Shown here piece after piece: positions 13,659 to 35,001 of a stretch of 64,000 nt of DNA; the stretch's first letter is position 1; each line of letters opens with the position of its first letter. The notes under the pieces were generated by a model. That model was not told where the DNA came from. It worked only from the letters and a program-made list of their open reading frames with translations, and ran no database searches. Made by a program: the position numbers and the translations under genes. This DNA comes from a virus: the IMG/VR virus record IMGVR_UViG_3300009509_000006, positions 34,059 to 98,058 of that record. The stretch is one strand, 5' to 3'.

Positions 13659-13835
13659 CTATCGCCGCCTGCGTTTCTTGCGGGCTCGCTTCAAGCGCAT
13701 GAACACGGACATGTCGTCGGGGTCGAGGATCCACGAGTCGGGCACACTTCGCAGAGGCGGGAAAGTGGCCTTTGTGAAGTAGCCCACGTTGGCGGTCGTG
13801 GTCTGCTCGCTCATGCGCCAGCGTCTTCGTGCCAC
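13659..13835 (-). CDS. 58-aa protein resembling the major capsid N-terminus, with a basic tail
   Basis: My translation: MARRRWRMSEQTTTANVGYFTKATFPPLRSVPDSWILDPDDMSVFMRLKRARKKRRRR. GTG start 1 nt after the tube gene stop; below the ORF track size cutoff. Confidence 0.65.
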   Translation of the reverse strand: MARRRWRMSEQTTTANVGYFTKATFPPLRSVPDSWILDPDDMSVFMRLKRARKKRRRR

Positions 13836-15890: not shown

Positions 15891-18800
15891 TCAGGTCAAC
15901 GTCTTCTGCGTGAATCGGAACCGCACGAACTCGGCAGGCTTCTGTGGCGCCAGAGCGATGTCAATGATCACCTGGCCAGCGTCGATGCTCTCTGGAGAGT
16001 TGTTCGTGCTGTCCACCGTGACGATGAAGGCCTCGGAAGGCTGGGCGCCTGCCAGGATGCCTTCGTTGAACAGATTGAGGAAGAAGCCCTCGAGCTGCGC
16101 CTTGATCCGGGTCCACAGGGCCGGGCCGTTGTTCTCGAACACGATCCAGAACGTCGAGTTGTAGACGCTCCGCTCGGCAAACATGAACATCCGCCGCGTC
16201 GAAATGTAGCGCCAATCGCTCTGATTCGAGATCGTGCGAACGCCCCAGACAGCTCGGCCGGTCGCCGCGCTTGCGATGAGCGGGTTGATCTTGTTCGGGT
16301 AGACCGTGTTCCGCTCTTCGATGTCGGGCTCGGTCTCGAGACCCGTGACGAAGCGGAGCTGGCCGTCGACGACTCCACCGGGAGCCTTGCCGACGTTGCG
16401 GTCGTTGTCGGTCCGCGCGTAGATCCCAGCGATGTGCCCCAGAGGCGGGATCAGAAGGTCTCGGTTGTCCGATAGCGGATCCGCGATCTTCACCCACGGC
16501 CAATACAGGGCGGCCCACTTCGAGAAGCGTTGGAGCGTGTACCGGAACCAGCTGACCGCCTCTTGTGCGGTGAGCGCGGACGGAACGGCCAGGATAGCGA
16601 AGCGGTCGCCACCGTGCGGGAGCGCTTCCCGAGCGTCGCAGTAGTCGAGGATGTCGCCCGTGATCGTCGTGTCGCCGGCCCAGTCTGGCACGATCAACTG
16701 CAAGAGCTCGTCGACCTTGTTGAACGCGAAGATGCCTTCGTAGTTCGGGCTGAGAGTCGGGCTCGTGAACTGGTTTCGCCCCCACTGTGTCGTCGAAGTG
16801 AACGTCCCGTTCGTCCCTTCTGCGTAGCCCTTGGTCGTGTCGCCAAAGTCTTCGTCGTGCTGCGTCTCTTCGGGCTCGGTGTAGTAGTTCAGGACGGCGA
16901 GCGTCCCGTTCTTGATCGGGTGCCCGGCGACCACCGTCACGTCGATCAAGCCGCTCGAGTACGTGATCTCGTTCGTTCCGGCGGCATCGATGTCCCCGGT
17001 CAGATTGCCGGCCCCGTCATCGATGATCGTGCGAGTGCTGTCGTCCGTCGCCGACGTGTACGTGAGCGAGAAGGTGCGAGGCTGCACGGGGGCGTTTCCG
17101 ACATAGTCCTGGATCGTTCGACCGCCCGTTGTCTCGTCCCCGCCGACCAGAACTCGATAGCGCGGGACAGCCTGGAGCTGCCCCGGAGCCTCGTTGCCTC
17201 CGGGCTCGTTGACCACGACCAGATCCGAGAGATCGTTGACCACATCGGCGAAGAACTTGGTCGAGGTGTCGTCCGAGAAGTCGAGCTCTTCGTAGGGCTC
17301 GCTGATCGAGTAGTCCTGGAGCGAGCTGTTGTACTCCAGCACCTGGAAGTCGAAGCGGCTGAACTGCCCGGTCTCCGCAGTGTAGTAGTCGACGTTGCCC
17401 TTCACACGCAGGCGCACGTCATTGCCCCACTCTCCACGAGAGGACGGGTCGAGGTCCCAGGCGTAGATGTTGTAAGTCCACAGGATCGGGCCGCCGTTCC
17501 CGGCGCCAGTGGGGCCAATGGGTGCCGTCGAGAAGTTGAGCGTGTACGACCCGTCGTCGTAGTCGACAACAGAGGCCGCGGCAACATCCCCTGTGATGTT
17601 CCCGGCACCATCATCCGTCGCGGTCTTGGTGTCGCTCGCGAGGTCATAGTCCGCCGTCACAAGCGAGTTGGCATCGATGGCCACGGCGGTGCGCAGAGAC
17701 CACACACCGGTGCGGCAATCCATGATGGCGTACACACCCGAGGGAGGAGGTGTCGCAGCCGTCGCATAGGTCCAACGGTCGATCTTCACCGAAAGAACCG
17801 CTGTGCGAGGTGTTCCGCCTGCTTCCCACTTGAGGGTCACACTCCCACCAAGGTAGGAGAACAACGCCTCGTCGAGACCCGGACCATCGACGCCTCCGGT
17901 CGGTTGCGTCACCGTGATCGCGCCACCGGTCGTGTTCTCGGCCCACGAGGTAACGTTCCCTGCCGTTCCGGGGTTCGTGTTGTAGATGTCGACCTGGGAC
18001 AGGCTCGCGTTCTGCGTCGCGGACTTCAACGTGAGGCCGGAGGCCACACCATTGATCGCCGCACGCATGGCTTCGGCGACATCGTCTGTGGAAGCGACGG
18101 CGCTGATATCGACGGGGACGTTTCCAGCAGTCACCGAGGAATCGTCGTCGAACTCGAACACGGTCGGCGTGTTGATCCCGTCGTCCAGCGTGAACGTATC
18201 ACCATCGACGATCTGCAGAGCGCCGAACGCCGTGACGACCATGCGACCGTCGGCACCTCTGCCGTCCGGGAGCTGTCCTCCAAACTTCGTGGAAGACCCA
18301 TCCCCAACAACCGCACCAGTTCGGCCGCTCGCGTTCGACACGGCGCTCGTCGGCGACGACCCGAGCTCACGCCACCGAATCTCGACAGATTCGGGCACGA
18401 TAGGGGTGTCGCCGTCATTGACTTTCAGCCCGGTTGTGATCGCGGTCTTCGAGAATGCGGTCGTGGTCCCGTCGCCCGTCTCAGCTTCGTAGTCGTATTG
18501 CTTCGACTGAATCTTGGCCTCGGCGAGCGTCGCGTCCCCTGGCACGACACGGACAATGTAGGCGCGCCTTCCTCCGTTCGCGAAGTAGGCCGCCATGGAA
18601 TGGCCCAGGAAGCTCTCTTGCGTGAGCGCCCCGAACTTTCGGGTGTAGTCGTCGAAAGACGTCACCAGCGTTGCAAGATTCTCGGGCCCCTTGGGCGAGT
18701 AGCCGAGGCCGCCAACGGTGGAGGTCGAGACCCCCTGGATCACTTGCACCTGGGACGGCACCTCTTCGATGAAGACGCCAGCACTCAGGATCTCTGCCAC
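15891..18800 (-). CDS. Contractile tail sheath protein (gp18/FI) with inserted domains
   Basis: SAGVFIEEV, KGPEN, YFANGGRRAYIVRV, ALYWPW, PPLGHIAGIYARTD, WGVRT, WRYISTRR and KPAEFVRFRF motifs. Confidence 0.97.
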   Translation of the reverse strand: MAEILSAGVFIEEVPSQVQVIQGVSTSTVGGLGYSPKGPENLATLVTSFDDYTRKFGALTQESFLGHSMAAYFANGGRRAYIVRVVPGDATLAEAKIQSKQYDYEAETGDGTTTAFSKTAITTGLKVNDGDTPIVPESVEIRWRELGSSPTSAVSNASGRTGAVVGDGSSTKFGGQLPDGRGADGRMVVTAFGALQIVDGDTFTLDDGINTPTVFEFDDDSSVTAGNVPVDISAVASTDDVAEAMRAAINGVASGLTLKSATQNASLSQVDIYNTNPGTAGNVTSWAENTTGGAITVTQPTGGVDGPGLDEALFSYLGGSVTLKWEAGGTPRTAVLSVKIDRWTYATAATPPPSGVYAIMDCRTGVWSLRTAVAIDANSLVTADYDLASDTKTATDDGAGNITGDVAAASVVDYDDGSYTLNFSTAPIGPTGAGNGGPILWTYNIYAWDLDPSSRGEWGNDVRLRVKGNVDYYTAETGQFSRFDFQVLEYNSSLQDYSISEPYEELDFSDDTSTKFFADVVNDLSDLVVVNEPGGNEAPGQLQAVPRYRVLVGGDETTGGRTIQDYVGNAPVQPRTFSLTYTSATDDSTRTIIDDGAGNLTGDIDAAGTNEITYSSGLIDVTVVAGHPIKNGTLAVLNYYTEPEETQHDEDFGDTTKGYAEGTNGTFTSTTQWGRNQFTSPTLSPNYEGIFAFNKVDELLQLIVPDWAGDTTITGDILDYCDAREALPHGGDRFAILAVPSALTAQEAVSWFRYTLQRFSKWAALYWPWVKIADPLSDNRDLLIPPLGHIAGIYARTDNDRNVGKAPGGVVDGQLRFVTGLETEPDIEERNTVYPNKINPLIASAATGRAVWGVRTISNQSDWRYISTRRMFMFAERSVYNSTFWIVFENNGPALWTRIKAQLEGFFLNLFNEGILAGAQPSEAFIVTVDSTNNSPESIDAGQVIIDIALAPQKPAEFVRFRFTQKTLT

Positions 18801-19876: not shown

Positions 19877-20278
19877 TTACGCGCCCGCGTTCACCTGGGA
19901 TCGAGCAATCGACAGGGCACGCTCGCCGAGACCGCAAGTGGCCGCCCGAGCGATCCAGATCGCCAGGCCCTTCTGGTCGTTCGGGATTTCGAAGAGCAAA
20001 GCCTCCTCGATCATCTGGTCAATGGCCGTGCCGACGCACTGCATGGCTCCGTCCACAGTGAGCCCGTACTCGACGCCGATCGCATCGACGATGTCCTCGA
20101 TGTAGCGATCGAAGTCGTGCGTGACGCCAGTGATGTTCGTGGCCTTGCCGGTACCAGGCAGACTGCCGTGTCGATCGGTTGCGGCTTCGCCGAGCGCCTC
20201 CTTGGAGGAGTCGAACTCCATGTCGCCAATGATCTTGTCACGGATGCCTTCCAGAACGGCGTTGAATTCCGAATTCAT
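19877..20278 (-). CDS. Hypothetical acidic protein
   Basis: GGAGA ribosome-binding site; lies within the structural operon. Confidence 0.7.
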   Translation of the reverse strand: MNSEFNAVLEGIRDKIIGDMEFDSSKEALGEAATDRHGSLPGTGKATNITGVTHDFDRYIEDIVDAIGVEYGLTVDGAMQCVGTAIDQMIEEALLFEIPNDQKGLAIWIARAATCGLGERALSIARSQVNAGA

Positions 20279-24054: not shown

Positions 24055-24579
24055 CTACTTCCCAGGAAACTCCTTCTTGAGCTTCGATTCCACAGCCTTG
24101 TTCCACGACTTGAGCTTCGGGCCCTCCCACCAGCGCGACGCCGCGGCGCCGACAGCCGCAGCGCCTCCCCAGAAGGGGTCGTACCGCCCGTACAGCTGCT
24201 TCGTGTCCGAGATCTTTGCGCTGGCGTGCCCAACGAGGTGTCGAGCGTTGACGAGCTCCGGTGGAAGGATCATGAGGAGGCCTTCCTTCCTGAGCATCTC
24301 AACAGTGAAGTCCGTACCCTTGAGCATTCCTCGGGCGTCGTCCATCGCGCTTTTGCCAATGTCGAATCCCTGCTCGCGCGTCAGGTACTTGCGCCCGTAG
24401 GCAACGCCCTTCTTCCACTGGGCCTCGGCAAACTTCGATCCGGACAAGGATTTGCCGAATTTGTCCTTGTAGCCCATGAAGGGCTTCTTCCACTCTTCGT
24501 GTGGGACAGGAGGATCGGGAAATTGCGCCTCAAGCTTGCCCTCGAGCAGGTCCCGGCCCTCTTGGATGAAACGTCGCAC
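24055..24579 (-). CDS. Putative internal head protein 3 (shared leader MRRFIQEGRDLLE)
   Basis: Leader shared with the two upstream genes; Lys-rich. Confidence 0.65.
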   Translation of the reverse strand: MRRFIQEGRDLLEGKLEAQFPDPPVPHEEWKKPFMGYKDKFGKSLSGSKFAEAQWKKGVAYGRKYLTREQGFDIGKSAMDDARGMLKGTDFTVEMLRKEGLLMILPPELVNARHLVGHASAKISDTKQLYGRYDPFWGGAAAVGAAASRWWEGPKLKSWNKAVESKLKKEFPGK

Positions 24580-24580
24580 A

Positions 24581-24844
24581 TCAGCCCCCTACTTCCTTGA
24601 GCTTCGCGGCCACTTCGGGGTCCTTGCCCCAGCGCTTCCTGACAGCCGCCTTCACGGCAGGGTAGTCACTGGAGTCACCACGCTTCGCCTGGATGTAGGC
24701 GAGAGCGCGGATCGCGTGCTCCTGGTCATGGATCGGCCACCCCTTGCGCTCGGGGAAGACGAATGACGACTTTTTCATGCGCTCGCGCTTCCCTGGCGTG
24801 ATCTCGTCGAGCAGCGCACGTCCTTCTTCGATCAGGTCTCGCAT
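24581..24844 (-). CDS. Putative internal head protein 2 (leader MRDLIEEGRALLDE; small basic domain, possibly DUF6582-like)
   Basis: TGATG overlap sets the start at 24844; motif RERMKKSSFVFPERKGWPIHDQEHAIRAL. Confidence 0.7.
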   Translation of the reverse strand: MRDLIEEGRALLDEITPGKRERMKKSSFVFPERKGWPIHDQEHAIRALAYIQAKRGDSSDYPAVKAAVRKRWGKDPEVAAKLKEVGG

Positions 24845-25791
24845 CACACAACTCCCATGTCCTGGAGCACAGTGACCACACCCTTCTTGATGCGGTTCTG
24901 GCTCTTTGGCGTGAGGTGTTTCTTGATCTCGCGCCATGTGTTGGATTGCCCGAGCAGAAACGTCACCGCCTTGCTCTGCGGCCACGCTACGAGTTTCGCT
25001 CTGTGCGCGCCAACCAGGTCCCGAACCTGCGCGGAAATCTCCTGCATGTAGGCCTTCACCTCTTCGGGCGAGTTGTAGTAGCGAGCCTGGCGCTCCTTCG
25101 CCTTGGCCTTCGCCTGAGCTCGCTGCTCTTTCGGACTGTCCGGCGGATGCAATCCCACCTTCGTGAGGGTCATCTTCAGCCGCTCAGTTGAGTCGCCGAT
25201 CCCGAGCTCTTTTCGCTTCCGGGCGATCAGTCGGTGCGAGACCTCGCCATAGCCAGCTGCCTTCAAAATCTGCGAGATCTGCCTATCCGAGAAGGGATGA
25301 ACAGGGTTCTCCTGCTGGAGCAGCGCTACGATGTGACGCTCCAGGCTCTTCTTTCGCAGCACGTCCTTGGCGTGGGTGATCTCGTGCATGAGGGCGTACT
25401 TCATGGCGCCCTGAATGCTCGACATCTCGGTCCCACGCAAGAGCGGCACGAGCTCGCCGGCACCGAGATTTCCGTTCAGCATCATGTTGATGATTCGCTC
25501 TTTCGGCGCGTAGACGGCACCCAGAAAGAGCCCGCGCACGCCGGGCCTCTTGACGCTGATCACCGAGACCGGAATCTCGCGCTTCTTGCCCTTGACATCG
25601 GACACAGTGATCTTCTCGGTGGCCCACAGCTTGTCGCCGATCGGCTTGGTCGGTTGCACCCTCGCCATGCTCTGGAGCGCGGGCACGAACTGGCCCATGA
25701 GCCGCTTGACGAGCATCGTAACGACTTGGTCAGGCAGCTTGATCGGGCGGGCTTCGAGGAGCTTGTGCCCTTCCGTGATCAGGTCTCGCAT
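24844..25791 (-). CDS. Putative internal head protein 1: zincin (HEITH) with inserted sigma-54 C-terminal DNA-binding domain
   Basis: Leader MRDLITEGHKLLE; HEITH followed later by YYNSPEEVKAY; insert IVALLQQENPVHPFSDRQISQILKAAGYGEVSHRLIARKRKELGIGDSTER. Confidence 0.75.
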   Translation of the reverse strand: MRDLITEGHKLLEARPIKLPDQVVTMLVKRLMGQFVPALQSMARVQPTKPIGDKLWATEKITVSDVKGKKREIPVSVISVKRPGVRGLFLGAVYAPKERIINMMLNGNLGAGELVPLLRGTEMSSIQGAMKYALMHEITHAKDVLRKKSLERHIVALLQQENPVHPFSDRQISQILKAAGYGEVSHRLIARKRKELGIGDSTERLKMTLTKVGLHPPDSPKEQRAQAKAKAKERQARYYNSPEEVKAYMQEISAQVRDLVGAHRAKLVAWPQSKAVTFLLGQSNTWREIKKHLTPKSQNRIKKGVVTVLQDMGVV

Positions 25792-25800
25792 GGCTACCTC

Positions 25801-25839
25801 AAACAGAAAGGCCGCCCACCCAGATCGGGGGAGCGGCCC
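25801..25839 (-). terminator. Rho-independent terminator after the major capsid gene
   Basis: Minus strand GGCCGCTC...GGGCGGCC stem followed by TTTCTGTTT. Confidence 0.75.
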
Positions 25840-25880
25840 AGTACGACCGTGTCAATGGAACGACCCGAGACCGAGCCGCA

Positions 25881-27377
25881 TCAGATGTTGAGCACGCGGA
25901 CCTGCCCGTAGTATTCGGCCCGAAGCAGCTTCTTCGCGTAGCGGGTACGCAGACCCTTACGGAAGCTCATGTCATTCGGATCCAAAAAGGTGGGCGTCAC
26001 CTGCAACGGGACGTAGGGGGCCCAGACGAACCCGGCGTCCAAGTACGAGCCGCCCTTGAGGCCCAGCATCGCGAAGTCGGACGCGAAGAACGGGTCGACG
26101 TAGACGACCCACTTCCGCATCAGGGTGCCGGCCTTGTAGACGCCGAACTGGCCGTGCTGCGTCAGGGGGCGCGGCATGTCGGCCGGTCCGAGCGGGCTCT
26201 CGCCGCCGCTCACCCAGATCGGGCGGTAGTCGCCGTGAGTGGTCAGCTGCTCCATCAGAGCGCTGATCTCGGGCGAGGTCACAATCCAGTTCGCGGGCGC
26301 ACGCAGGGTCCGCTTGTGGATCGAGTTCGACACCTGGGACAGCACGGTGACGAGCGACCGGAGGTGATCGATCTCGGCGATGCCGCTGGGCGGGATCCGA
26401 TCGAAGGTTCCACCGCTCCCGGTCGAGGCCAGGAACAGGTCCTGGATGATCTCCCGGTCGATCTCGAGCGCCATCTCGCTCGCCGCTGCAGCGACCAGCT
26501 CCGTCTCGGCTTCGAGCCCCTGCAGGTTGCGCAGGTCCTCAGCCGCTTCCGAGCTCCAGAGAGCCTTGAGACGACGCGGGACCGCCTCGATGACGGCTTT
26601 CTTCACGTCGAGCTGCACTTCGGGCAGCTTGGTGTTGAGCTCGCCGTCGTAGCTGTAGTACATCTTGATCTGGTGGCCAGCCACGGGGTCGACGGCGAAA
26701 CGCACACCCGCCAGGGCACCATTCGAGTAGTTCAGGGTGCCGGCGGTGAGATCGGTGCTGGTGTCCGCGGCACCACTCGCCAGGAACTTGCCCTCCTGAA
26801 TCACGGACCCGGCCGCATCGAGGTCGCGGATGATCACGTCATAACCGCGATCGGTACTCGGCTTGTGCACCGGAGTGAGAGCCAGATTCACACTGATCGG
26901 CACACCACTGGGACCGTAGTCCGAGCCGGTACCGGTGGCGAGGATTTCACCATTCACGAACTCCGAGCTGTAGTAGCGGTCGAAGTCGCGCGGGAACACG
27001 TCGCCGCGAGTCGTTTCCCCCTTGGTCGTACCGTAGACATAGTCCAGGTAGAACACGGCGCCCTGCGGCGCGGTCATGGGCTGCACCGAGACGATCTCGT
27101 TCACGATCAAGTTCGGGAACACACGGCTGAGCACCGGGAACACGAATTTCGTGAAGTAGCCCACATTGATGGCCCTCGTCTCTTCGTTCATGCTACGAAG
27201 GTGACGGGCCTGGTTCTCGTAGAGCATCGCCATGCAGCCCCGAATGTAGCGCTCGTGGCGACAGCGATCCGGCATCCCTTCCAGAAGGGGTGCCCACTTC
27301 TCCACGTATGCGCCGACGAGACGGCGGTCGGCGATGGTGCCACTGCTATCTTCGATCACAACTCGACGAGCTTCCAC
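25881..27377 (-). CDS. Major capsid protein (T4 gp23-like)
   Basis: KWAPLLEG, IVSVQPMTAPQGAVFYLDY, RRLKALWSSEAAEDL, LEIDREII and APYVPL...RKGLRTRYA motifs. Confidence 0.97.
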   Translation of the reverse strand: MEARRVVIEDSSGTIADRRLVGAYVEKWAPLLEGMPDRCRHERYIRGCMAMLYENQARHLRSMNEETRAINVGYFTKFVFPVLSRVFPNLIVNEIVSVQPMTAPQGAVFYLDYVYGTTKGETTRGDVFPRDFDRYYSSEFVNGEILATGTGSDYGPSGVPISVNLALTPVHKPSTDRGYDVIIRDLDAAGSVIQEGKFLASGAADTSTDLTAGTLNYSNGALAGVRFAVDPVAGHQIKMYYSYDGELNTKLPEVQLDVKKAVIEAVPRRLKALWSSEAAEDLRNLQGLEAETELVAAAASEMALEIDREIIQDLFLASTGSGGTFDRIPPSGIAEIDHLRSLVTVLSQVSNSIHKRTLRAPANWIVTSPEISALMEQLTTHGDYRPIWVSGGESPLGPADMPRPLTQHGQFGVYKAGTLMRKWVVYVDPFFASDFAMLGLKGGSYLDAGFVWAPYVPLQVTPTFLDPNDMSFRKGLRTRYAKKLLRAEYYGQVRVLNI

Positions 27378-27408: not shown

Positions 27409-28959
27409 TCAATCCGCTCCAGGCGGCATCAACTCCTTCAGGGCTCCGAGGCCAACACCGAGACCATTGAAATCGGTGTCCTCACTGAGTGCTCTCCTGA
27501 CAGGCGTATCCGGCCAGGGCTCCTCCTCGTCGAACGGTGTGTGTCCGACTCCGCCCCCCAATTGACGGCGAATCCGCGAAACCGTGGATTCGATGGCCTC
27601 CAGCGAACGCTTCGGAGGCCGGAACTGCTCGATGATCGAGTCGACGTCTTCGCGAGACGACAGGGCCGATCGGTCGAACACTTCCCTGATCTGCTTGGCC
27701 CTCGGGTGCTTGCCGATACGTCTCTCCCCGTACAGCTGAAGGCCCGTGATGTGCAGTGCTTCGGCAGACTTGTGTAGCGCGGTCTCCAGGTCGCGCACAC
27801 GGTCGTGCAGCTGCTCGAACTGAGCTTCGGCGCGCTCGGTGAGCTCGCGGTGTTGCTCCTGCGCCTGTTCCTCCTCCAGACGCAGCTCTTCGAGATGCTC
27901 TTGCACAGAGGCGAGCTTCGACTGGAAGTCCGCCTCGGATTCGAACCGCGAGAGGTCTCCGACCAGTTGCCGCACACGCTCGGCATCCGGGTTCTGGTGC
28001 AACTCTCGCTCCATGTACCAGGCGAACCCGGCCACCTGGGCCAGAGTCACCAGCTTCTCGTTCTCTTCCTCGAGTTCGGCCACGCGGGCACGCACCTTGT
28101 CTCTCGACTCTCGCAGCCGAGCGATCTCTTCGTCTCTGCGCTCCAGGGCTTCGCGGGCTTCTCCGGATCGCATGAAAGGCGCGAGAGCCTCTCGGATCAC
28201 GTGGAAGGCCTCGACCTTCTGGAGCGTCTCGTCGCTGCGCAGCTCGGCCCGGACGTCCGCCTCGACGACCGTGCGCAGCTCGGACATTCGCGTCAGGATG
28301 TCCGTGGCGATCTCGGCATTCATGTCGGGATCGCCCGAAGCGTTCTCTTCGGGAAGGAACTCGTCCCCTTCCGGGAACTCGATACCTTCGAACAGGAGCA
28401 TGCTGTCAAGGTCGACACTCTCGCCGACCATTGTCGGGTAGGCGGTCTGATCCGCGGGGTCGGCAACGAAGTCGAATGCGATGAGCTTGTAGTCCTCCTG
28501 GACCACGTTCTCGCCGAACTCGTTTGGCTTCGTCGTCCCGTAGCCTCGGGACGAGATTCCGACCTTGCCTCCCTCACGCAGGATGGCTGCGAGATCCTTG
28601 CCCGCCGCCGTACCGAGGATCTGCGCCTCGCCGTACACGACATCGTCGCGGACCTCGAGCTTCGTGATCAGGTGGCTTGCCCTGGACAGCTTCGTTTTGC
28701 CGTCTTCTGGATGATCGAGCTCGCCGTAGCACTTTCGCTCAGCAAGGCGCGGCAACAGGCGCTTGATCTCCCGCTCCCACAGAGCCTTTGGGTAGACGCG
28801 CTTATTTTCGGTCGGGATACCGGCGCGGGCGAACTCACCGCGCATGAAAAGACGCTTCGTTGCCACGTCTTCGACGAGCTCGAGCTCGGTCCCCTCGATC
28901 CACTCGATGAGATGATTGAGGTCGCCGACCTTCGTGTCTTCTGTGAGCTGCTTCGTCAT
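27409..28959 (-). CDS. Prohead protease (gp21-like) fused to coiled-coil scaffold (gp22-like)
   Basis: NKRVYP, GELDHP, SHLI, VGISSRGYG and FDFVADP motifs; Glu-rich coiled-coil C-terminus. Start taken at the TGATG overlap (28959); 28974 is an alternative. Confidence 0.93.
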   Translation of the reverse strand: MTKQLTEDTKVGDLNHLIEWIEGTELELVEDVATKRLFMRGEFARAGIPTENKRVYPKALWEREIKRLLPRLAERKCYGELDHPEDGKTKLSRASHLITKLEVRDDVVYGEAQILGTAAGKDLAAILREGGKVGISSRGYGTTKPNEFGENVVQEDYKLIAFDFVADPADQTAYPTMVGESVDLDSMLLFEGIEFPEGDEFLPEENASGDPDMNAEIATDILTRMSELRTVVEADVRAELRSDETLQKVEAFHVIREALAPFMRSGEAREALERRDEEIARLRESRDKVRARVAELEEENEKLVTLAQVAGFAWYMERELHQNPDAERVRQLVGDLSRFESEADFQSKLASVQEHLEELRLEEEQAQEQHRELTERAEAQFEQLHDRVRDLETALHKSAEALHITGLQLYGERRIGKHPRAKQIREVFDRSALSSREDVDSIIEQFRPPKRSLEAIESTVSRIRRQLGGGVGHTPFDEEEPWPDTPVRRALSEDTDFNGLGVGLGALKELMPPGAD

Positions 28960-29189
28960 CAGTACCGCCGCCATCGAAACTGACCCCGTAGCGGGGTCCT
29001 ATCCAGGAGACCGGGCTTCTTGCGAACAACCCGGGACTTGCGCTGTGTGGCCTTCTGGTAGTTGAAAGCGTCTCTCCTCCCACTCGAGGTGGACACGCGG
29101 CGTCCCCGCGTCGAATGCGAGAGCGTAGGCCTTGTCGGTTTGATTCGCCGGCGCGCTACGATCCCGCGGTTCCGCCTCAGTCTTCCCCC
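28959..29189 (-). CDS. Arg/Lys-rich 76-codon open frame, candidate -1 frameshift extension of the upstream core protein
   Basis: Fills the intergenic gap, has no start codon near its 5' end, is entered at G GGG GAA, and ends TGATG on the protease start. Confidence 0.55.
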   Translation of the reverse strand, partial: GGRLRRNRGIVARRRIKPTRPTLSHSTRGRRVSTSSGRRDAFNYQKATQRKSRVVRKKPGLLDRTPLRGQFRWRRY

Positions 29190-29923
29190 TGGTCGTCGCC
29201 CTCCACGATGCTCTCGTACACCTCGCAGGCGTCGAGAAGAACCGAGAACTGCGATTCGAAAGCCTCTTGAAGAGCCTCGAGGTCCTCGATGTCACCCTCT
29301 TCGATGGCATCGACAACCGTGCCGGCGAGGTTCGCCAGGCCCACGCAGCTGTCCGCGAGCTCGGCGAGCTCTTCGTCCTCGTCTTCGTTCGCGAAGAAGC
29401 GGAACGCCTCGCTCAGAAGCGCCGCGATCTCCTGGATGTACCCGAAACCCTCGTGCGCTTCGGTCAGGACATCGTCACGGTCGATCTCGACCGCCTCGGG
29501 CTCGGTGTGATCGACGAGACCCTTGATCTCGCTGATCAGGTCCGTGATGCGCCCCAGGGCGACATCGTCTTCCTTGCGAGTGCCCTTTCGGAGAGCCGCA
29601 GCTGCGACCTTCTCCTTGTGGGTCTGCCACTGCGGGCGTTCGTACTTCTTCTCGCGCTTTCGAGCGGCAGCCTTTCCTTTGCCACCTCGGCGATAGCGCC
29701 GGCCACGAAGAAGCTCCTTCATGGGAGTCCTTGCCAATGTCTTTTTCGTCCCGATGCGACGCTTGATTCGGACGCGCTCTTCGAGCTCGCCGTCCTTGTC
29801 GTCGTCGTCGCCCTCGAGCTCGGGGTCCGTCGTGACCTCGTCCTCCTCGGGGAGCACGTCTTCGCTCAGGAGCCCGATCGCCTTGAGGTCCTCTTGCAGG
29901 GACCGCACTACGACGTTGTACAT
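29177..29923 (-). CDS. Prohead core protein (gp67/gp68-like)
   Basis: Alternating acidic and Arg/Lys blocks; position between portal and protease genes. Confidence 0.65.
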   Translation of the reverse strand: MYNVVVRSLQEDLKAIGLLSEDVLPEEDEVTTDPELEGDDDDKDGELEERVRIKRRIGTKKTLARTPMKELLRGRRYRRGGKGKAAARKREKKYERPQWQTHKEKVAAAALRKGTRKEDDVALGRITDLISEIKGLVDHTEPEAVEIDRDDVLTEAHEGFGYIQEIAALLSEAFRFFANEDEDEELAELADSCVGLANLAGTVVDAIEEGDIEDLEALQEAFESQFSVLLDACEVYESIVEGDDQGED

Positions 29924-29934
29924 TCCGATTCCTC

Positions 29935-30819
29935 CTACTCGCTCAGTTTGTCTGCCACTCCCTGCAGGAAGCCCCCCGCGACCTGATACGCCGGGAATTC
30001 CAAGGCCAGTGCGTCATACAGTCTGCTCAACTGTTCGGGGCAAGAAAGCCCAAGTGTCGCATCTTCGACGAGACGCCCGAGGCCTTCGAGGTCGTCCGCA
30101 AGGTCTCTCCCGAACGAGACAAGAGCATCGCCGAGGCCATCTTCGAGCCTCGAAGTGCCTTCTGTGATGCCCTCTACAGAAGCATTCACCGAAGAGGCCA
30201 AATCGTCAAGACCTTCGGCCAGTTTCCTGACCTCTTGCCTGACGAGCAACAGGGTCTCGGCATCCGTGCCCGCGTTCTGGTGCTCCAGGAGTTCTGTGAG
30301 CCCAGGCTCGAAAGCCTCGTCGACCTCACCCGCAACCGCCTCGAATTCCGAGGACTTGGCCTCGTAGGCCTGGCGCCACGGACGAGGCCTCTTGATCGCT
30401 TCGACCATTCTGTCGACACGCTGTTCGTCAGTGAGTGGCGGGCAGTGCGGTGCGATCGCCTCGAGGAGTTCCATGGCGGCGCTCTCGTTGCCTTCGGCGA
30501 ACAAACGAACGGCACGCATGGCATCTCGGATCCGGAAATACTCGGCGTCCTCACCCCTGTAGATCGGGATCTCAAGGGGCTTGGAGTCGACAAGGTCCGA
30601 GCCGTCAAAGCTCAGATCGAGAAAGCGGCCGTCCTCGGAGGCCACGATCGCGCGGTCTTCGAAGGTACCCACGGTCCAGAAACGGACCCCGTCCTCGAAA
30701 ATGCGATCCTGGTTTCGTTCGATGGCGTGCTGAACGTCACCAATCTTGGCTTCGAACGAGCCAGAAAGGATGGGCCGAAGAGCTTCGGCAGGGACGAACG
30801 TTTCAGCCTGTTTCGACAC
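29935..30819 (-). CDS. Hypothetical acidic head-module protein
   Basis: GAGGT ribosome-binding site; follows the portal gene. Confidence 0.7.
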   Translation of the reverse strand: MSKQAETFVPAEALRPILSGSFEAKIGDVQHAIERNQDRIFEDGVRFWTVGTFEDRAIVASEDGRFLDLSFDGSDLVDSKPLEIPIYRGEDAEYFRIRDAMRAVRLFAEGNESAAMELLEAIAPHCPPLTDEQRVDRMVEAIKRPRPWRQAYEAKSSEFEAVAGEVDEAFEPGLTELLEHQNAGTDAETLLLVRQEVRKLAEGLDDLASSVNASVEGITEGTSRLEDGLGDALVSFGRDLADDLEGLGRLVEDATLGLSCPEQLSRLYDALALEFPAYQVAGGFLQGVADKLSE

Positions 30820-30823
30820 CGCT

Positions 30824-32659
30824 CTACCTCGCGTGATGCGGCCTCCGGTTTAGCTCTCGAGTGTGCATTCGAATCTCCCGGACCTGAGCAGCAATGCGAC
30901 TCTGCTCCCTGACCAGGCGCCCCCAAGGCGTGTTCGAGTACATATCCCCACGAAAGCCCATGCCAGATGGCACCCGCTCAGAGATACCATTGCCCCCCGC
31001 ACCGATCAAGTACGGTGCCCTGGGGGTGCCAGTGAACAGCCGAGGACGCCGGCCGCCGAGAAGCAGGTTTCCGTATGGGGCCCGGGACTCGAATCCGCCG
31101 CCACCTTCCTGCCCACCTTGTGCAGCCATCATAGCCTTCTGCATGAGGGCTTGCGCCTGGCCTTCGATAGCGCCCTGACGCACAGCCTCCTCGTCGCGCT
31201 GATCCATGATAGTGCGAATCTCGTCGTCCGTCAGGCCCTCACCGTGCTTCAGCGCGTATTGGAGCGATACGTGCTCGCGCATACGGCTCATCCAATCGGC
31301 CCGAGCGTTCTTCACCTCGAGCTGCGCCAGCTCGAAGATCGAGCTCGGCACCGTGAACTTCACCTCGAACTCGACGTTGTCCGGTGGGATCCCAAGAGCC
31401 GCCAGGTGCACACGGAAGACCTTCTCGAGTCCCTCGCGCAGGCACTGCTGCAGTCTCATGACCGTGCGCGCGAAACGGACGTCCTCGCTCGACAGGATCG
31501 CCCGGTTCACGCCCTCTTCCTGTGAGAAGTAGGCCTTCGGCACCTGCATCGCCGCGAACAGCTTGCGAAGGAAATATTCGATGTCTTCCATGTGCTGCCA
31601 GTTCGGACCGCCCAGCAGCTCGATTCGTGTAGCCTCGGTACCATTGATCACAGGCACGAAGAAGTCTTCGTCTTGCGCCAGTGCGTCGAAGCGCAGGTCG
31701 CGCTGATTCGTGATCGGGTTGACGAACTTCTTCTTTTTGTACTGCTGCCGGATCTTGTGCAGCATCTTGAGGGCTTCGTGCGGCGGCAGGTTGCCCGTGT
31801 CGACGTAGAAAGCGAAGCGCTCGGGAGCGCGCTGCAGCCTGTAGACCAACGCAGCGTCTTCCAGAAGGATCAGCCGCTTCCAGATCCAGCGAGCCGGCTC
31901 GAGAATGCTCCAGCCGTAGACAGAGCGGCGGTGCTTCGCGCGCATTCGAAAGTGCGCGACCTGCCAGTTCTCGAACGGGATCACTTCGTTGTAGCCGACG
32001 CTTCTCGGCGGCGTCGCCGAGAGCTCGTTCGGCTGCCCAGGGCCTTTGTACTGGAATTGGAAGCGCTTCGAGAGCAGGTCCTGGAACTCTTTCGGCGAGA
32101 ATCCGATGCGCCGCTTGAAGTCCTGGACGAAGCCGTAGAGCTCGCCACGGGGTCCCTCGATGCGCCGCACAGAGTGCGCAGGCAAGTGATTCAGCCCGAC
32201 GACGCCCTCCTCGGCAACCAGGATCTCTTCGTAGTCGTTGCCTGTCTTCGACGTCGACCGGGCGATCTCCCACAGGTCCCTATCTTCCAAGCGCAGGGTC
32301 CGGTGGAACAGATCGTTTCCGAGTTGGGCAATATCGCGGTCCGGGCTCTCCACCCAGACACGGCGCCCACCTGGTGTGTCTGGCTGCGTCGCGTCGTCGG
32401 CGTAGATGTTGAGCGCGGCGCTCACCTCCGGGTAGTCGTCCATCGTTTCGTAGTCGATGAACCGCGACATGAGGTCTTGCTCCAGCTTGAGGTAGTCCGC
32501 CACGACATCGTAGCCGTAGCTCTGGAGCATATCGTAGGCCGAGCCTGGAAGCGTAGCGGCTGTCGCTCCTTGAGCCAGGCGCAGCTGCACCTGCTCTTTG
32601 TCCCTGCCGAACCAGGAGCGGATACCACCGAACACGCGGTTCATGAAGCCAGGCATCAA
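30824..32659 (-). CDS. Portal protein (T4 gp20-like)
   Basis: YETMDDYPEVSAALNIYADD, LLEDAALVYRLQRAPERFAFYVDTGNLP, EDFFVP and DIEYFLRKLFAAMQVPK motifs. Confidence 0.97.
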   Translation of the reverse strand: MMPGFMNRVFGGIRSWFGRDKEQVQLRLAQGATAATLPGSAYDMLQSYGYDVVADYLKLEQDLMSRFIDYETMDDYPEVSAALNIYADDATQPDTPGGRRVWVESPDRDIAQLGNDLFHRTLRLEDRDLWEIARSTSKTGNDYEEILVAEEGVVGLNHLPAHSVRRIEGPRGELYGFVQDFKRRIGFSPKEFQDLLSKRFQFQYKGPGQPNELSATPPRSVGYNEVIPFENWQVAHFRMRAKHRRSVYGWSILEPARWIWKRLILLEDAALVYRLQRAPERFAFYVDTGNLPPHEALKMLHKIRQQYKKKKFVNPITNQRDLRFDALAQDEDFFVPVINGTEATRIELLGGPNWQHMEDIEYFLRKLFAAMQVPKAYFSQEEGVNRAILSSEDVRFARTVMRLQQCLREGLEKVFRVHLAALGIPPDNVEFEVKFTVPSSIFELAQLEVKNARADWMSRMREHVSLQYALKHGEGLTDDEIRTIMDQRDEEAVRQGAIEGQAQALMQKAMMAAQGGQEGGGGFESRAPYGNLLLGGRRPRLFTGTPRAPYLIGAGGNGISERVPSGMGFRGDMYSNTPWGRLVREQSRIAAQVREIRMHTRELNRRPHHAR

Positions 32660-32970
32660 CCCCTCGCCGCCAACTGTGTGAGGAACGTCTCCTGAAAGAG
32701 ACGCGGGTCCTTTAGGTAGGCTCTCAGGCGCTTGGCCAGCGCTTCGGACAGTCCCTCGACGCCGACATAGTCTGCCGCACGGAGGCCTTGCGCTTCAAGA
32801 CCGTCCGCCAATTCCTGCGCCGCAAGGATGCCGAGGTTCTCGACTATGGGCTCCAGGGGGATGGCCTCCGCGATCTCTTTGGCCTTTTCCCGAGCGAGGC
32901 TCGACACAGAGAGCAGAGTCGACGCGAGGTCTCCCTCGAATATACGCCTCGCGGCTTCCAGTGCATTCAT
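32656..32970 (-). CDS. Hypothetical protein
   Basis: Coupled ORF between terminase and portal genes. Confidence 0.7.
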   Translation of the reverse strand: MNALEAARRIFEGDLASTLLSVSSLAREKAKEIAEAIPLEPIVENLGILAAQELADGLEAQGLRAADYVGVEGLSEALAKRLRAYLKDPRLFQETFLTQLAARG

Positions 32971-32973
32971 GAA

Positions 32974-35001
32974 TCACCCCACGAGGAAAGGCATGGACCC
33001 CCACTCTCTCGCTGTGTCCACCGACAACCCCATCGAGTTCAGCGCATCCCGGTGCCCAGCAGCCACTGCATGTTGTTGCTCAACCATCCAGGCCTGGCTG
33101 TCCGGGTCATCGTAGGTGCTCAGGCCCATCAGGAACGGGGTCGGCGACACGTTCCGAACGGTCTTGAGCGAGTACAGTGCCCCGGCCATCGCGTCGGAAA
33201 CATCCTTTGCACCATTGCGTGGCTTGAGCACCTTGCGCTTCTCCCAGTCGGCCTCAAGGGACTGCAACTGGTTCAACACAGGGTTGTAGGCGTAACACGA
33301 CACGCGGTCCTCGTACAAAGCCTGCTTGAGAGTCTGGTACGGATCCCACGTTCTGTCCATCGAAACTTGATCCGTCGTGAACCCCTTCTTCGACAGCGTC
33401 TGCAAGCTGTCGATGGACTGCCACTGATCCATCGTGACGTGCACGATCGGGAATCCGTGAGCCTTCAGGTCGTAGACGAGTTGGCGGTACAGCGCGAAGT
33501 CGAGGTCCCCTCCGGGAGGTGGGACGATTTCGAGGATCAGGTCGATCACATACTGCGGTGCGAGCTCCTCGTAGACCCGGAGGCTCGAGTCCATTCGCCG
33601 CACCGGCACCTGCCCACCAATGTGGGCCATGCAGAGACCGGCCGAGCAGTTGTTCAGAGCGGGGTCGATGTGCACGTGGCGCTGCGCCGACGGATTCAAG
33701 AGTGGGATCAGCTTCTGCTCGGTCTCCTTGAATCCCGTGCGAACCGCGATCGCCCGCACAAGCTTCTCCCACAGGAAGTCGCCTCCAAGCGACGGGTCGA
33801 AGACCTCCGAGGTGAAAGGGTGCTCCCGAGTCGCATCCACCATGTCGTGGATCTTGTCTCGGCGTTGAATGAACGGCGAGACTGCGGTGGTTGCAATCCC
33901 GGCCAGGTCACGAATCGAGCCCTCGAGGTCGGAGGTGAACTCCGATCGCAGGTCCTCGGGAACCTCGATGAGCACTGTGCGCTCTGGTTGGTTCTCCTTG
34001 ATCAGGACAGCTTCGTCCTCTCCCAGAATCCGGGAGCGCACCTGCTCGTTGCCGCACAGTACGTAGAAGCGCCGGGGACCATAGTCGTCTGGCTTGACAT
34101 CCCAGAGTGCGTAGTCACGGACAAAGATCGTCGAGTCGTACTTCGCCGCTTCGATTCTCTGCTGGATGAACGAATCGTGCGTCGCCTTCGAGCTCGGGAG
34201 GAAGAGCTTGCCAGCGCGTCCATATCGCGAGTGGATCCGGCGCTTGATCGAATCGTACAGGTCTTTCGCCATGTTGACCGCGCCGAAACGGTCGTTCGCC
34301 TTCTTCTTCCTGACGGGCAGGAAGTTGCCCTCGTCGATGAGGCCAGCGATCAGGTTCATGCCGAGTGCGCCACGCGGCGTTGTCGCCCTGGAGACCACCA
34401 GCACGTTGTTGGGGAACCGGATGTTCTTCTGCGTGATCTTGAAGGGGAAGTGCTCAGCGAAGTAGGGGCTCTGCGCGATCTTGCCCACAACGTTCTTGAG
34501 CGCGACCTCTTTGGCCAGCTCCTCGTTCGCGCTGAAACAAGCAATCGAGATGGGGGCCTCTTTCGAAAGACCGTAGGCCCGCTGCGGCTGATGCAAACAC
34601 GAGAGCTCGTAGAGCATCCGACAGATGCCGATCGAGCACGAGAACGTCTTGCCCGTCCCGATCGCTCCCGTGAAGATCACCTCGCTGTACTGCCCATCGA
34701 AGACCTCGATCAGGTCATCGAGCAGTTGTGGGAAGATCACGTTGCACGTCTCGCCCAGATAGTACGGGTCGAGGATGAACGTGCGCATGTCGACGGGCTC
34801 GCGGATGTACTGCGCCGTCGCGATCTGGTCGACAACCCTTCTGCCTTCGTGCTCCAGGTCTTCGCCGAGCGCCTCCGCATACATCTGGAGCACGAGCTCT
34901 TTCTCGCCAGGCGAGAGCTTGTGGAATTCAGCAGCTACCAACTCTTCGAGGTCGTCGACAGTCTGCTCGCTCCAAGATCGACCCTGCTCCTCGTGGATCA
35001 T
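32974..35001 (-). CDS. terL: Terminase large subunit
   Basis: Walker A GAIGTGKT, Walker B GLIDE, nuclease motifs HIDPA...DQWQS...KDVSDA. Confidence 0.93.
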   Translation of the reverse strand: MIHEEQGRSWSEQTVDDLEELVAAEFHKLSPGEKELVLQMYAEALGEDLEHEGRRVVDQIATAQYIREPVDMRTFILDPYYLGETCNVIFPQLLDDLIEVFDGQYSEVIFTGAIGTGKTFSCSIGICRMLYELSCLHQPQRAYGLSKEAPISIACFSANEELAKEVALKNVVGKIAQSPYFAEHFPFKITQKNIRFPNNVLVVSRATTPRGALGMNLIAGLIDEGNFLPVRKKKANDRFGAVNMAKDLYDSIKRRIHSRYGRAGKLFLPSSKATHDSFIQQRIEAAKYDSTIFVRDYALWDVKPDDYGPRRFYVLCGNEQVRSRILGEDEAVLIKENQPERTVLIEVPEDLRSEFTSDLEGSIRDLAGIATTAVSPFIQRRDKIHDMVDATREHPFTSEVFDPSLGGDFLWEKLVRAIAVRTGFKETEQKLIPLLNPSAQRHVHIDPALNNCSAGLCMAHIGGQVPVRRMDSSLRVYEELAPQYVIDLILEIVPPPGGDLDFALYRQLVYDLKAHGFPIVHVTMDQWQSIDSLQTLSKKGFTTDQVSMDRTWDPYQTLKQALYEDRVSCYAYNPVLNQLQSLEADWEKRKVLKPRNGAKDVSDAMAGALYSLKTVRNVSPTPFLMGLSTYDDPDSQAWMVEQQHAVAAGHRDALNSMGLSVDTAREWGSMPFLVG

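Follow-up and report, generated by a model that had tools for sequence, protein, structure and literature searches.

We analyzed a 64-kb stretch of viral DNA (the window), which forms the right-hand part of a single 98,058-bp contig (IMG/VR record IMGVR_UViG_3300009509_000006) with a GC content of 61.6% and nearly all of its genes on the minus strand. Immediately after the gene for a gp23-like major capsid protein, three minus-strand genes, here termed g1, g2, and g3, encode proteins that begin with a common short leader and then diverge. g1 (24844-25791) starts with ATG and encodes a 315-aa protein that begins MRDLITEGHKLLE followed by Ala. g2 (24581-24844) encodes an 87-aa protein that begins MRDLIEEGRALLDE followed by Ile; the true start codon, an ATG at 24844, and the stop codon of g1 overlap as ATGA. 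g3 (24055-24579) starts with GTG and encodes a 174-aa protein that begins MRRFIQEGRDLLE followed by Gly. Shine-Dalgarno-like sequences (GGAG, GAGG, or GGGGG) lie 7 to 12 nt 5' of each of the three starts. Over g1 to g3 the leader has the consensus MR[DR][LF]IxEGxxLL[DE], and the full leader peptide that we propose has 13 to 14 residues and the form M-R-[DRN]-[LFM]-I-x-E-G-[RH]-x-L-L-(x)-E. All on the minus strand, it comprises residues 1 to 13 of g1 (25753..25791; profile E = 8e-8), with a predicted cut before Ala14; residues 1 to 14 of g2 (24803..24844; profile E = 4e-8), with a predicted cut before Ile15; and residues 1 to 13 of g3 (24541..24579, including the GTG start; profile E = 1e-5), with a predicted cut before Gly14.

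A six-frame regular-expression search and a profile search returned exactly five leader matches in the 98,058-bp contig, all five at start codons. The two additional leader genes lie outside the window on the minus strand: g4 (contig positions 1389-1706) encodes a 105-aa protein beginning MRNMIQEGRLLLE followed by Gly, and g5 (contig positions 4423-4848) encodes a 141-aa protein with a degenerate leader, MRDLIDEAQLLLA. The shared leader and the divergence behind it, as described for g1 to g3 in the first-pass annotation, were thus confirmed by regular expression, profile, N-terminus scores, and body alignments, and the family of three that it had proposed has at least five members. Because the contig is ~57% complete according to CheckV, this count is a lower bound and more leader genes may exist on the remaining genome. 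In an all-against-all comparison of the first 16 residues of 3,779 possible open reading frame (ORF) starts, leader pairs scored 46 and 34 versus a mean of −13.6 (standard deviation, 8.2) and, besides internal repeats and one capsid-like fragment, were the only high scorers between separate genuine gene starts. Beyond residue 20, we detected no significant similarity among the five leader proteins by local alignment (z ≤3.2 versus shuffled sequences). Separately, we observed that a short ORF (13659-13814, minus strand) holds a copy of the capsid N-arm (TTANVGYFTKATFPPL versus TRAINVGYFTKFVFPVL at capsid residues ~66 to 86), which gave the fourth-highest N-terminal pair in this unbiased scan, and that g4 is adjoined on its upstream side by a gene for a 519-aa protein (L001 1721-3280, minus strand; contig coordinates, outside the window) with four internal repeats of the type ALKHIQNAMDEMDFIAVSNAIG.

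The relatives that we compared are 66 IMG/VR loci from a capsid-based search. Across these capsid-related loci, the leader regular expression gave chance internal matches only, and a degenerate DNA pattern for MRDLIxEGxxLL[DE] gave no match in IMG/VR, so that this precise form may be private to the window phage. The nearest relative (G001/G002), the capsid protein of which is 74% identical, has a leader of its own that was found by unbiased comparison of N termini within each locus. It has the form MS[KRQS]LSE[AVT][VI][EDQ][RK]GR[EG][LF][LF]xE/[AV] (here and below, a slash marks the end of the leader or a candidate cut site), with a broader core of [AVTL][VI][EDQ]xGRxL[LF]xE, and is alignable with the leader of the window phage (AVERGRELLSE versus LIEEGRALLDE). 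A profile built from the leaders of this relative alone was run over the 1,611 six-frame ORFs of the window genome; g2 was the top match (E = 4.5e-4), and g3, g4, and g1 were also in the top six. The conservation in related phages that the first-pass annotation had asked for is thus present as a homologous leader and absent for the exact form, while the profile scan that it had suggested returned N-terminal matches on diverse proteins, five here and at least nine in the nearest relative.

The leader genes of G001/G002, identified by whole-record profile searches and inspection, encode three small basic proteins, one short ORF, the g1 orthologue P0003, the zincin paralogues P0005 and P0142, a 285-aa enzyme with a RelA_SpoT domain (PF04607, 7.5e-16), and a 693-aa protein. 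The RelA_SpoT-domain protein (L070:97-954, minus strand, corresponding to G001 contig 16896-17753) carries the leader MKRLIEEGRKILQE and is a candidate for a prepackaged nucleotide-pyrophosphokinase effector. A second g1 orthologue, P0002, from another contig, begins MAELSELIEEGRALLE followed by Thr. The g1 protein is the only cargo common to the window phage and G001/G002, and the leader is kept on it in both. Over unrelated cargo, the prefix of the leader is genome specific, MRDLI in the window phage and MSxLSE in G001/G002. These comparisons indicate that the cargo set turns over fast and that the leader is kept, evolving in concert within each genome. Capsid relatives that are ~65% identical had no leader-type genes between the capsid and head-tail adaptor genes; in L041, this region has grown to ~8 kb and includes homing endonucleases. 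The region between the capsid and head-tail adaptor genes behaves as a hyperplastic cargo island. The endonucleases in the post-capsid island of that relative are of the LAGLIDADG and HNH types (L041 11586-12428 and 18931-19560), and we also noted intein-like C-terminal motifs (MFDLTVPG...VVHN) in G001 and possibly a similar pair in G004.

The similarity between the leader genes begins precisely at the start codon, and the DNA upstream is unrelated between genes. Within the leader, codons vary synonymously (GGG/GGA/GGC, CGT/CGG/CGC, CGA/AGG, and CTC/CTG/TTG). Therefore, selection acts on the peptide. As noted in the first-pass annotation, g1 and g2 also share ATGCGAGACCTGATC in DNA; this identical 15-nt start is present in three genes that are up to 55 kb apart, which suggests recent copying or gene conversion. 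The same identity is what speaks for a feature at the level of DNA, i.e., a stretch that passes from gene to gene as a recombination cassette or translation-initiation region and encodes a peptide with no function of its own. We regard this explanation as very improbable, because past the 15 nt the amino acids are conserved with synonymous changes next to unrelated upstream regions, because in the nearest relative the peptide motif persists with other codons and another prefix, and because conservation extends to the amphipathic pattern and the terminal Glu. Moreover, recombination at the leader would be compatible with a targeting function, as a route of cargo swapping.

The cargo of g1 (24844..25752, minus strand) belongs to an uncurated family with an HExxH motif. 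A profile of g1 and its relatives found 482 representatives of this zincin family in 1.84 billion proteins; no Pfam or PHROG model exists for it, and 10 members had no match in PHROGs. Most members are ~250 aa long, some are domains of 700- to 2,000-aa proteins with other zincin domains, and the family is present in IMG/VR contigs of up to 485 kb (P0005-P0153; loci L085-L113). In an alignment of 80 sequences, H136, E137, H140, Y238, N240, and E244 are invariant, and the family-wide conservation of HExxH and a downstream Glu ligand indicates that the g1 cargo is a gluzincin-type metallopeptidase. Between HExxH and the Glu ligand, at residues ~146 to 198, g1 has an insert resembling the RpoN-box DNA-binding domain of sigma-54 (Pfam Sigma54_DBD, 2.6e-8), which is missing from the paralogues P0005 and P0142 in the nearest relative. 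In an AlphaFold2 model of g1 based on the 80-sequence alignment (predicted local distance difference test [pLDDT] score of 91.3 and predicted template modeling score of 0.81; a 4-sequence alignment gave a pLDDT of 66.7), the insert matched sigma-54 RpoN (5ui5_V; Z 5.2, root mean square deviation of 1.9 A over 50 residues, 36% identity; 2o8k, probability 0.99). For the whole fold, Foldseek against the PDB and VIA-align in wide mode gave no convincing match; the best Z was 6.5, on the C-terminal helices, and no solved relative exceeded a Z of 8.

The remaining cargo proteins are small. The g2 cargo (24581..24802, minus strand) is a basic protein (mature isoelectric point [pI] of 10.1) that is weakly similar to DUF6582 (Pfam, 1.8e-4, below the cut-off) and to phrog_16160 (5e-8). 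The g3 cargo (24055..24540, minus strand; mature pI of 9.7) had no Pfam or PHROG match and no homologue in a 5.8-billion-protein index or the ESM Atlas, and in a word-index protein search, g2 and g3 each recovered only themselves. Likewise, g4, g5, and the small cargos of the relatives had no Pfam or PHROG match, and g3 to g5 are thus orphans. All 11 small cargos considered (5 from the window phage, 3 from L041, and 3 from L004) have a mature pI of 9.7 to 11.0, compared with a rough median of ~5.6 for the ORFs of the genome. That the leader genes are small, basic, and clustered, with g3, g4, and g5 being orphans, would fit an origin from one ancestor, the bodies of the paralogues having diverged beyond recognition around a conserved N terminus. 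Such a common ancestry is extremely improbable in our assessment: g1 belongs to a large zincin family with an invariant HExxH...E signature and g2 resembles DUF6582 and phrog_16160, which argues for independent origins, and in the nearest relative the leader is found on a RelA_SpoT enzyme.

The zincin family allowed us to locate the end of the leader relative to a conserved domain. This domain begins [AST]RPIxLDK after a variable extension of 1 to 36 residues, and the g1 leader abuts the domain start (E/ARPI). In 19 of 80 members, [LIVMF]xE forms the end of the extension and directly adjoins ARPIxLDK; in ~15 of the 80 aligned members, an extension of the "RVAARF" type takes the place of the Glu-ended one. 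Among 26 further zincin-encoding IMG/VR records, the Pfam model for the S77 protease matched in only two (G006 and G027); both have a Glu-ended leader at the zincin junction, and in one of them it belongs to the second leader class described below. A junction Glu is missing from five S77-negative zincin records with a completeness of at least 90%. This association of the S77 protease with a junction Glu appears supportive, not decisive, since it stems from few, phylogenetically related records and since the Pfam S77 model misses the divergent Glu-specific proteases of phiKZ-like jumbo phages.

Some more distant relatives have a second leader, MNxRINxLLExIRxxLGE, which we refer to as class B, the leader of the window phage being class A. 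In L004, MNKRINRLLEGIRRELGE, followed by Ala, is identical on three basic proteins with unrelated bodies, and in L055, MQDRFNTLLEAI begins at least three genes. In the window, a conserved acidic 133-aa protein (19877..20278, minus strand), which is present in all relatives searched, has the class-B N terminus MNSEFNAVLE/GIRDKII and is the only class-B match in the genome (profile A3, E = 4.9e-10). In G006, a capsid relative with 64% identity, the zincin cargo begins MRESINSILSRIRLELGE followed by GRPIPIDK. The same zincin cargo family thus bears a class-A leader in the window phage and a class-B-like leader in G006.

In both classes, nearly every leader has [LIF]-x-E at its end and a small or aliphatic residue after it; only g5 and the 693-aa protein of G001 deviate. 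In the window phage, four of the five leaders end in hydrophobic-x-Glu (LLE/A, LDE/I, LLE/G, and LLE/G), and g5 has IDE/A only. A matching motif is present in the propeptide of the capsid protein (25881-27377, minus strand; Pfam Gp23, 6e-64), which has two clade-conserved hydrophobic-x-Glu sites, PLLE/G at residues 31 to 34 and SMNE/E at residues 62 to 65; an alignment of 38 relatives keeps KW..[LFM][LM]E/G and [LM]xE/[ED]TR..NVG.FTK. The closest capsid protein of a GenBank phage is only 35% identical, so that there is no near cultured phage, and the window phage belongs to an uncultured, GC-rich, distantly T4-like (far-T4) clade.

The capsid gene is part of a T4-like head module that includes genes for the large terminase (32974-35001), a gp20-type portal protein (30824-32659; Portal_T4, 1e-60), two proteins rich in Glu, encoded between portal and protease (29935-30819 and 29177-29923, the latter on the minus strand), and a fusion of a gp21-type S77 prohead protease with a Glu-rich C-terminal half that resembles a scaffold (27409-28974, minus strand). 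The gp21-like protease proposed in the first-pass annotation is encoded: the protein matches Pfam Peptidase_S77 (5.7e-16) and phrog_207 (1.8e-45) and aligns to the T4 gp21 structure 5JBL (E = 7e-13). Two residues at conserved positions, the His of GELDHP and the Ser of GISSRG, presumably correspond to the catalytic residues of gp21. Cleavage by T4 gp21 and by its relatives in giant phages takes place behind the Glu of a short motif (PMC9026906, PMC5694885), and the S77 protease of the window phage is presumed to be the enzyme that takes the leader off. Within the head module, the density of [LIM]xE is highest in the putative core protein p248 (29177-29923), with 13 observed versus 5.9 expected, and is also high in the scaffold half of the protease and in p294, another putative core protein. 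As a side observation, the Glu-rich protein 29177-29923 is duplicated in L016/L017 (6885-8142), where both copies have an N-terminal MRKPVVITSLEEDLQ.IGL.

These data bear on whether the leader is cut at all. A permanent docking helix that binds a partner other than the prohead core (portal or neck, tail lumen, packaged DNA, or a phage chaperone), with an incidental terminal Glu, would accommodate two observations: the class-B leader is also found on the conserved acidic protein, which is encoded among neck and tail genes, and the class-B cargo genes of L004 are located just downstream of the 3' end of the sheath gene. Still, the Glu is located exactly at the zincin domain boundary in 19 of 80 members and in every S77-positive phage, two leader classes end in L-x-E before the same cargo domain, and the capsid propeptide also keeps this motif. 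We therefore consider an uncleaved docking helix unlikely.

In the AlphaFold2 model of g1, the leader is a separate helix (residues 2 to 13) and is the least confident segment of the model. It is acidic and amphipathic, with a hydrophobic face formed by L4, I5, G8, L11, and L12. We considered a signal peptide and rejected it, as the leader is acidic and amphipathic and has no hydrophobic core. The properties of this helix also bear on the idea that the leader is a tag for another enzyme or pathway (modification, secretion or export, or regulated degradation) and is unrelated to the capsid. With 43% of the genome lying off the contig, there is room for such a system; yet a search for radical-SAM proteins (PF04055) gave no match in the 98-kb contig, which represents ~57% of the genome (the control was positive in 14 of 14 genomes), an acidic amphipathic helix is not a signal peptide, three leader genes follow the capsid gene immediately, within the head module, and the hydrophobic-x-Glu end fits the encoded T4-type protease. 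A tag unrelated to the capsid is, in our view, decidedly improbable.

Between the capsid stop codon and the g1 start, the centroid RNA fold contains a bulged 13-bp GC-rich hairpin followed by the U-run UUUCUGUUU (25800..25840, minus strand). A consensus terminator scan found nothing after the capsid gene, the bulge in the hairpin having made it miss this structure. The predicted hairpin is probably a leaky terminator just 5' of the g1 ribosome-binding site. Given the overlap of g1 and g2 and the 1-nt spacing between g2 and g3, we infer that the three genes form one coupled unit that is expressed by read-through below the level of the capsid gene; expression below that of the capsid protein would fit low-copy head contents.

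Taken together, we lean toward the interpretation that the leader is a T4-style capsid-targeting propeptide. We favor this interpretation because the leader is found on different cargo in the nearest relative, because it has a hydrophobic-x-Glu end as in the capsid propeptide, because it ends at a conserved cargo-domain boundary, and because it occurs together with a T4-type S77 head module and basic cargos. According to this model, the amphipathic N-terminal helix would dock newly made cargo on the prohead scaffolding core, which would be made up of the fused protease-scaffold protein and of the Glu-rich core proteins whose genes lie between those for portal and capsid. After closure of the shell, the gp21-type S77 protease would cut after the terminal Glu, with a hydrophobic residue at P3. 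The leader would then depart, the mostly basic mature cargo would stay with the DNA in the head, and the mature cargo would presumably enter the next host. Core docking, leader removal, packaging, and injection are all inferred from sequence comparisons. The first-pass annotation had proposed a leader of this kind, sending interchangeable cargo into the head and being cut after Glu; this proposal is partly supported, and all comparative tests run are consistent with it.

Several observations weigh against this interpretation, in addition to the narrow phylogenetic basis of the association between the S77 protease and the junction Glu. In g5, Ala and Gln replace the Gly-Arg core, the terminal LLE is missing, and the only candidate cut site is I-D-E at residues 5 to 7, while the 693-aa protein of G001 has a degenerate leader end, RLRSE/W, with Arg at P3. 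The RelA_SpoT cargo of the nearest relative is not basic (pI of 6.1). The cut motif itself carries little information: [LIMF]-x-E is found within residues 4 to 22 of 20 of 57 ORFs (~35%), i.e., at chance level. Accordingly, the additional hydrophobic-x-Glu sites to which the first-pass annotation pointed, in the giant protein, 32656-32970, and 19877-20278, do exist but are at chance, with the exception of 19877-20278, the N terminus of which matches the class-B leader that is found on multiple cargo genes in relatives. Profile searches identified no multigene leader family of either class in G004 (126 kb) or G005 (168 kb), and a whole-contig N-terminus scan of G004 likewise found none; therefore, the leader system is lineage specific or the tags of these two phages were missed. 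The T4 capsid-targeting sequence (CTS) is MKTYQEFIAE, and compared by eye with this sequence, the leader has no similarity to it. At best, the leader is an analogue of the T4 CTS or a version that has diverged beyond recognition. Lastly, the phage is uncultured and known here from sequence alone.

A broader idea, which we consider possible though doubtful, is that leaders of at least two interchangeable classes serve as genome-specific "address labels" that coevolve with the prohead core and end in a protease cut site. If this holds, the sequence of an uncultured phage would directly tell which proteins are packaged and injected; that one cargo family has different leader classes, each ending at the protease motif, suggests such a sequence-only listing of the proteins injected with the DNA. 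The injected set would include zincin peptidases with a sigma-54 promoter-binding domain and a RelA/SpoT-type nucleotide pyrophosphokinase as premade effectors against the host, and injected proteins would be prime candidates for antidefense or host-takeover functions. The widespread zincins with ARPIxLDK would constitute a general effector that phages inject and the N-terminal extension of which reports the head-protease specificity of each phage. Given a cultured member of the clade, the leader could become a portable packaging tag.

To our knowledge, experimental demonstration of capsid-targeting leaders is limited to T4 and P1, and those of phiKZ-like giant phages have been inferred from proteomics. 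The T4 CTS was reportedly studied by Mullaney and Black in 1996. Outside phages, the cargo-loading peptides of encapsulins are also short and portable, are present on unrelated cargo, and bind the interior of an HK97-fold shell. Unlike the leader described here, they are usually C-terminal and are not removed, there is no DNA packaging or injection, and their sequence is unrelated. In P1, an N-terminal segment of DarB, of which 30 residues suffice, sends the protein as well as a reporter into the head of a myophage, to be delivered to the host, which resembles the function proposed here; the part of that report drawn on here concerns one protein, with no multigene leader family, and describes no signal removal (PMC9024508). 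The phiKZ-like giants 201phi2-1, phiKZ, and SPN3US have a gp21-related protease that cuts after Glu at a short motif, and gp53 and gp54 of SPN3US have an identical 15-residue N terminus despite diverged bodies; in contrast to the leader described here, the propeptides of these phages are mostly >100 residues long and are located on paralogues, and the head is far more complex (PMC5694885, PMC10052503).

The closest parallel is T4 itself, in which the 10-residue CTS suffices to target internal proteins and foreign proteins to the scaffolding core, gp21 removes the CTS, and cargo genes vary between related phages (PMC9026906, PMC3012670, PMC10229621); the CTS has been proposed as a general device of T4-like phages (PMC9026906). 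Like the CTS of IPI, IPII, IPIII, and Alt (PMC9026906, PMC3012670), the leader described here is a short N-terminal peptide on unrelated, mostly basic proteins, ends in hydrophobic-x-Glu, occurs with gp20-, gp21-, and gp23-type head genes including the S77 protease, and is kept on cargo genes that are highly variable between related phages. Compared with the T4 CTS, it is longer (13 to 17 residues), has a G-R core, and heads three cargo genes right after the capsid gene. Among its cargo, known here from the genes, are zincin peptidases and, in one relative, a RelA/SpoT enzyme. The principle is thus already known, and this case, if correctly interpreted, would show the T4 logic at work in a clade of uncultured, GC-rich phages that are distantly T4-like and have an unrelated leader sequence. 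New are the two leader classes unlike that of T4, their genome-specific concerted evolution, their presence in an uncultured clade far from the T-evens, the types of cargo, and a cargo family that has different leaders, each ending at the protease motif.

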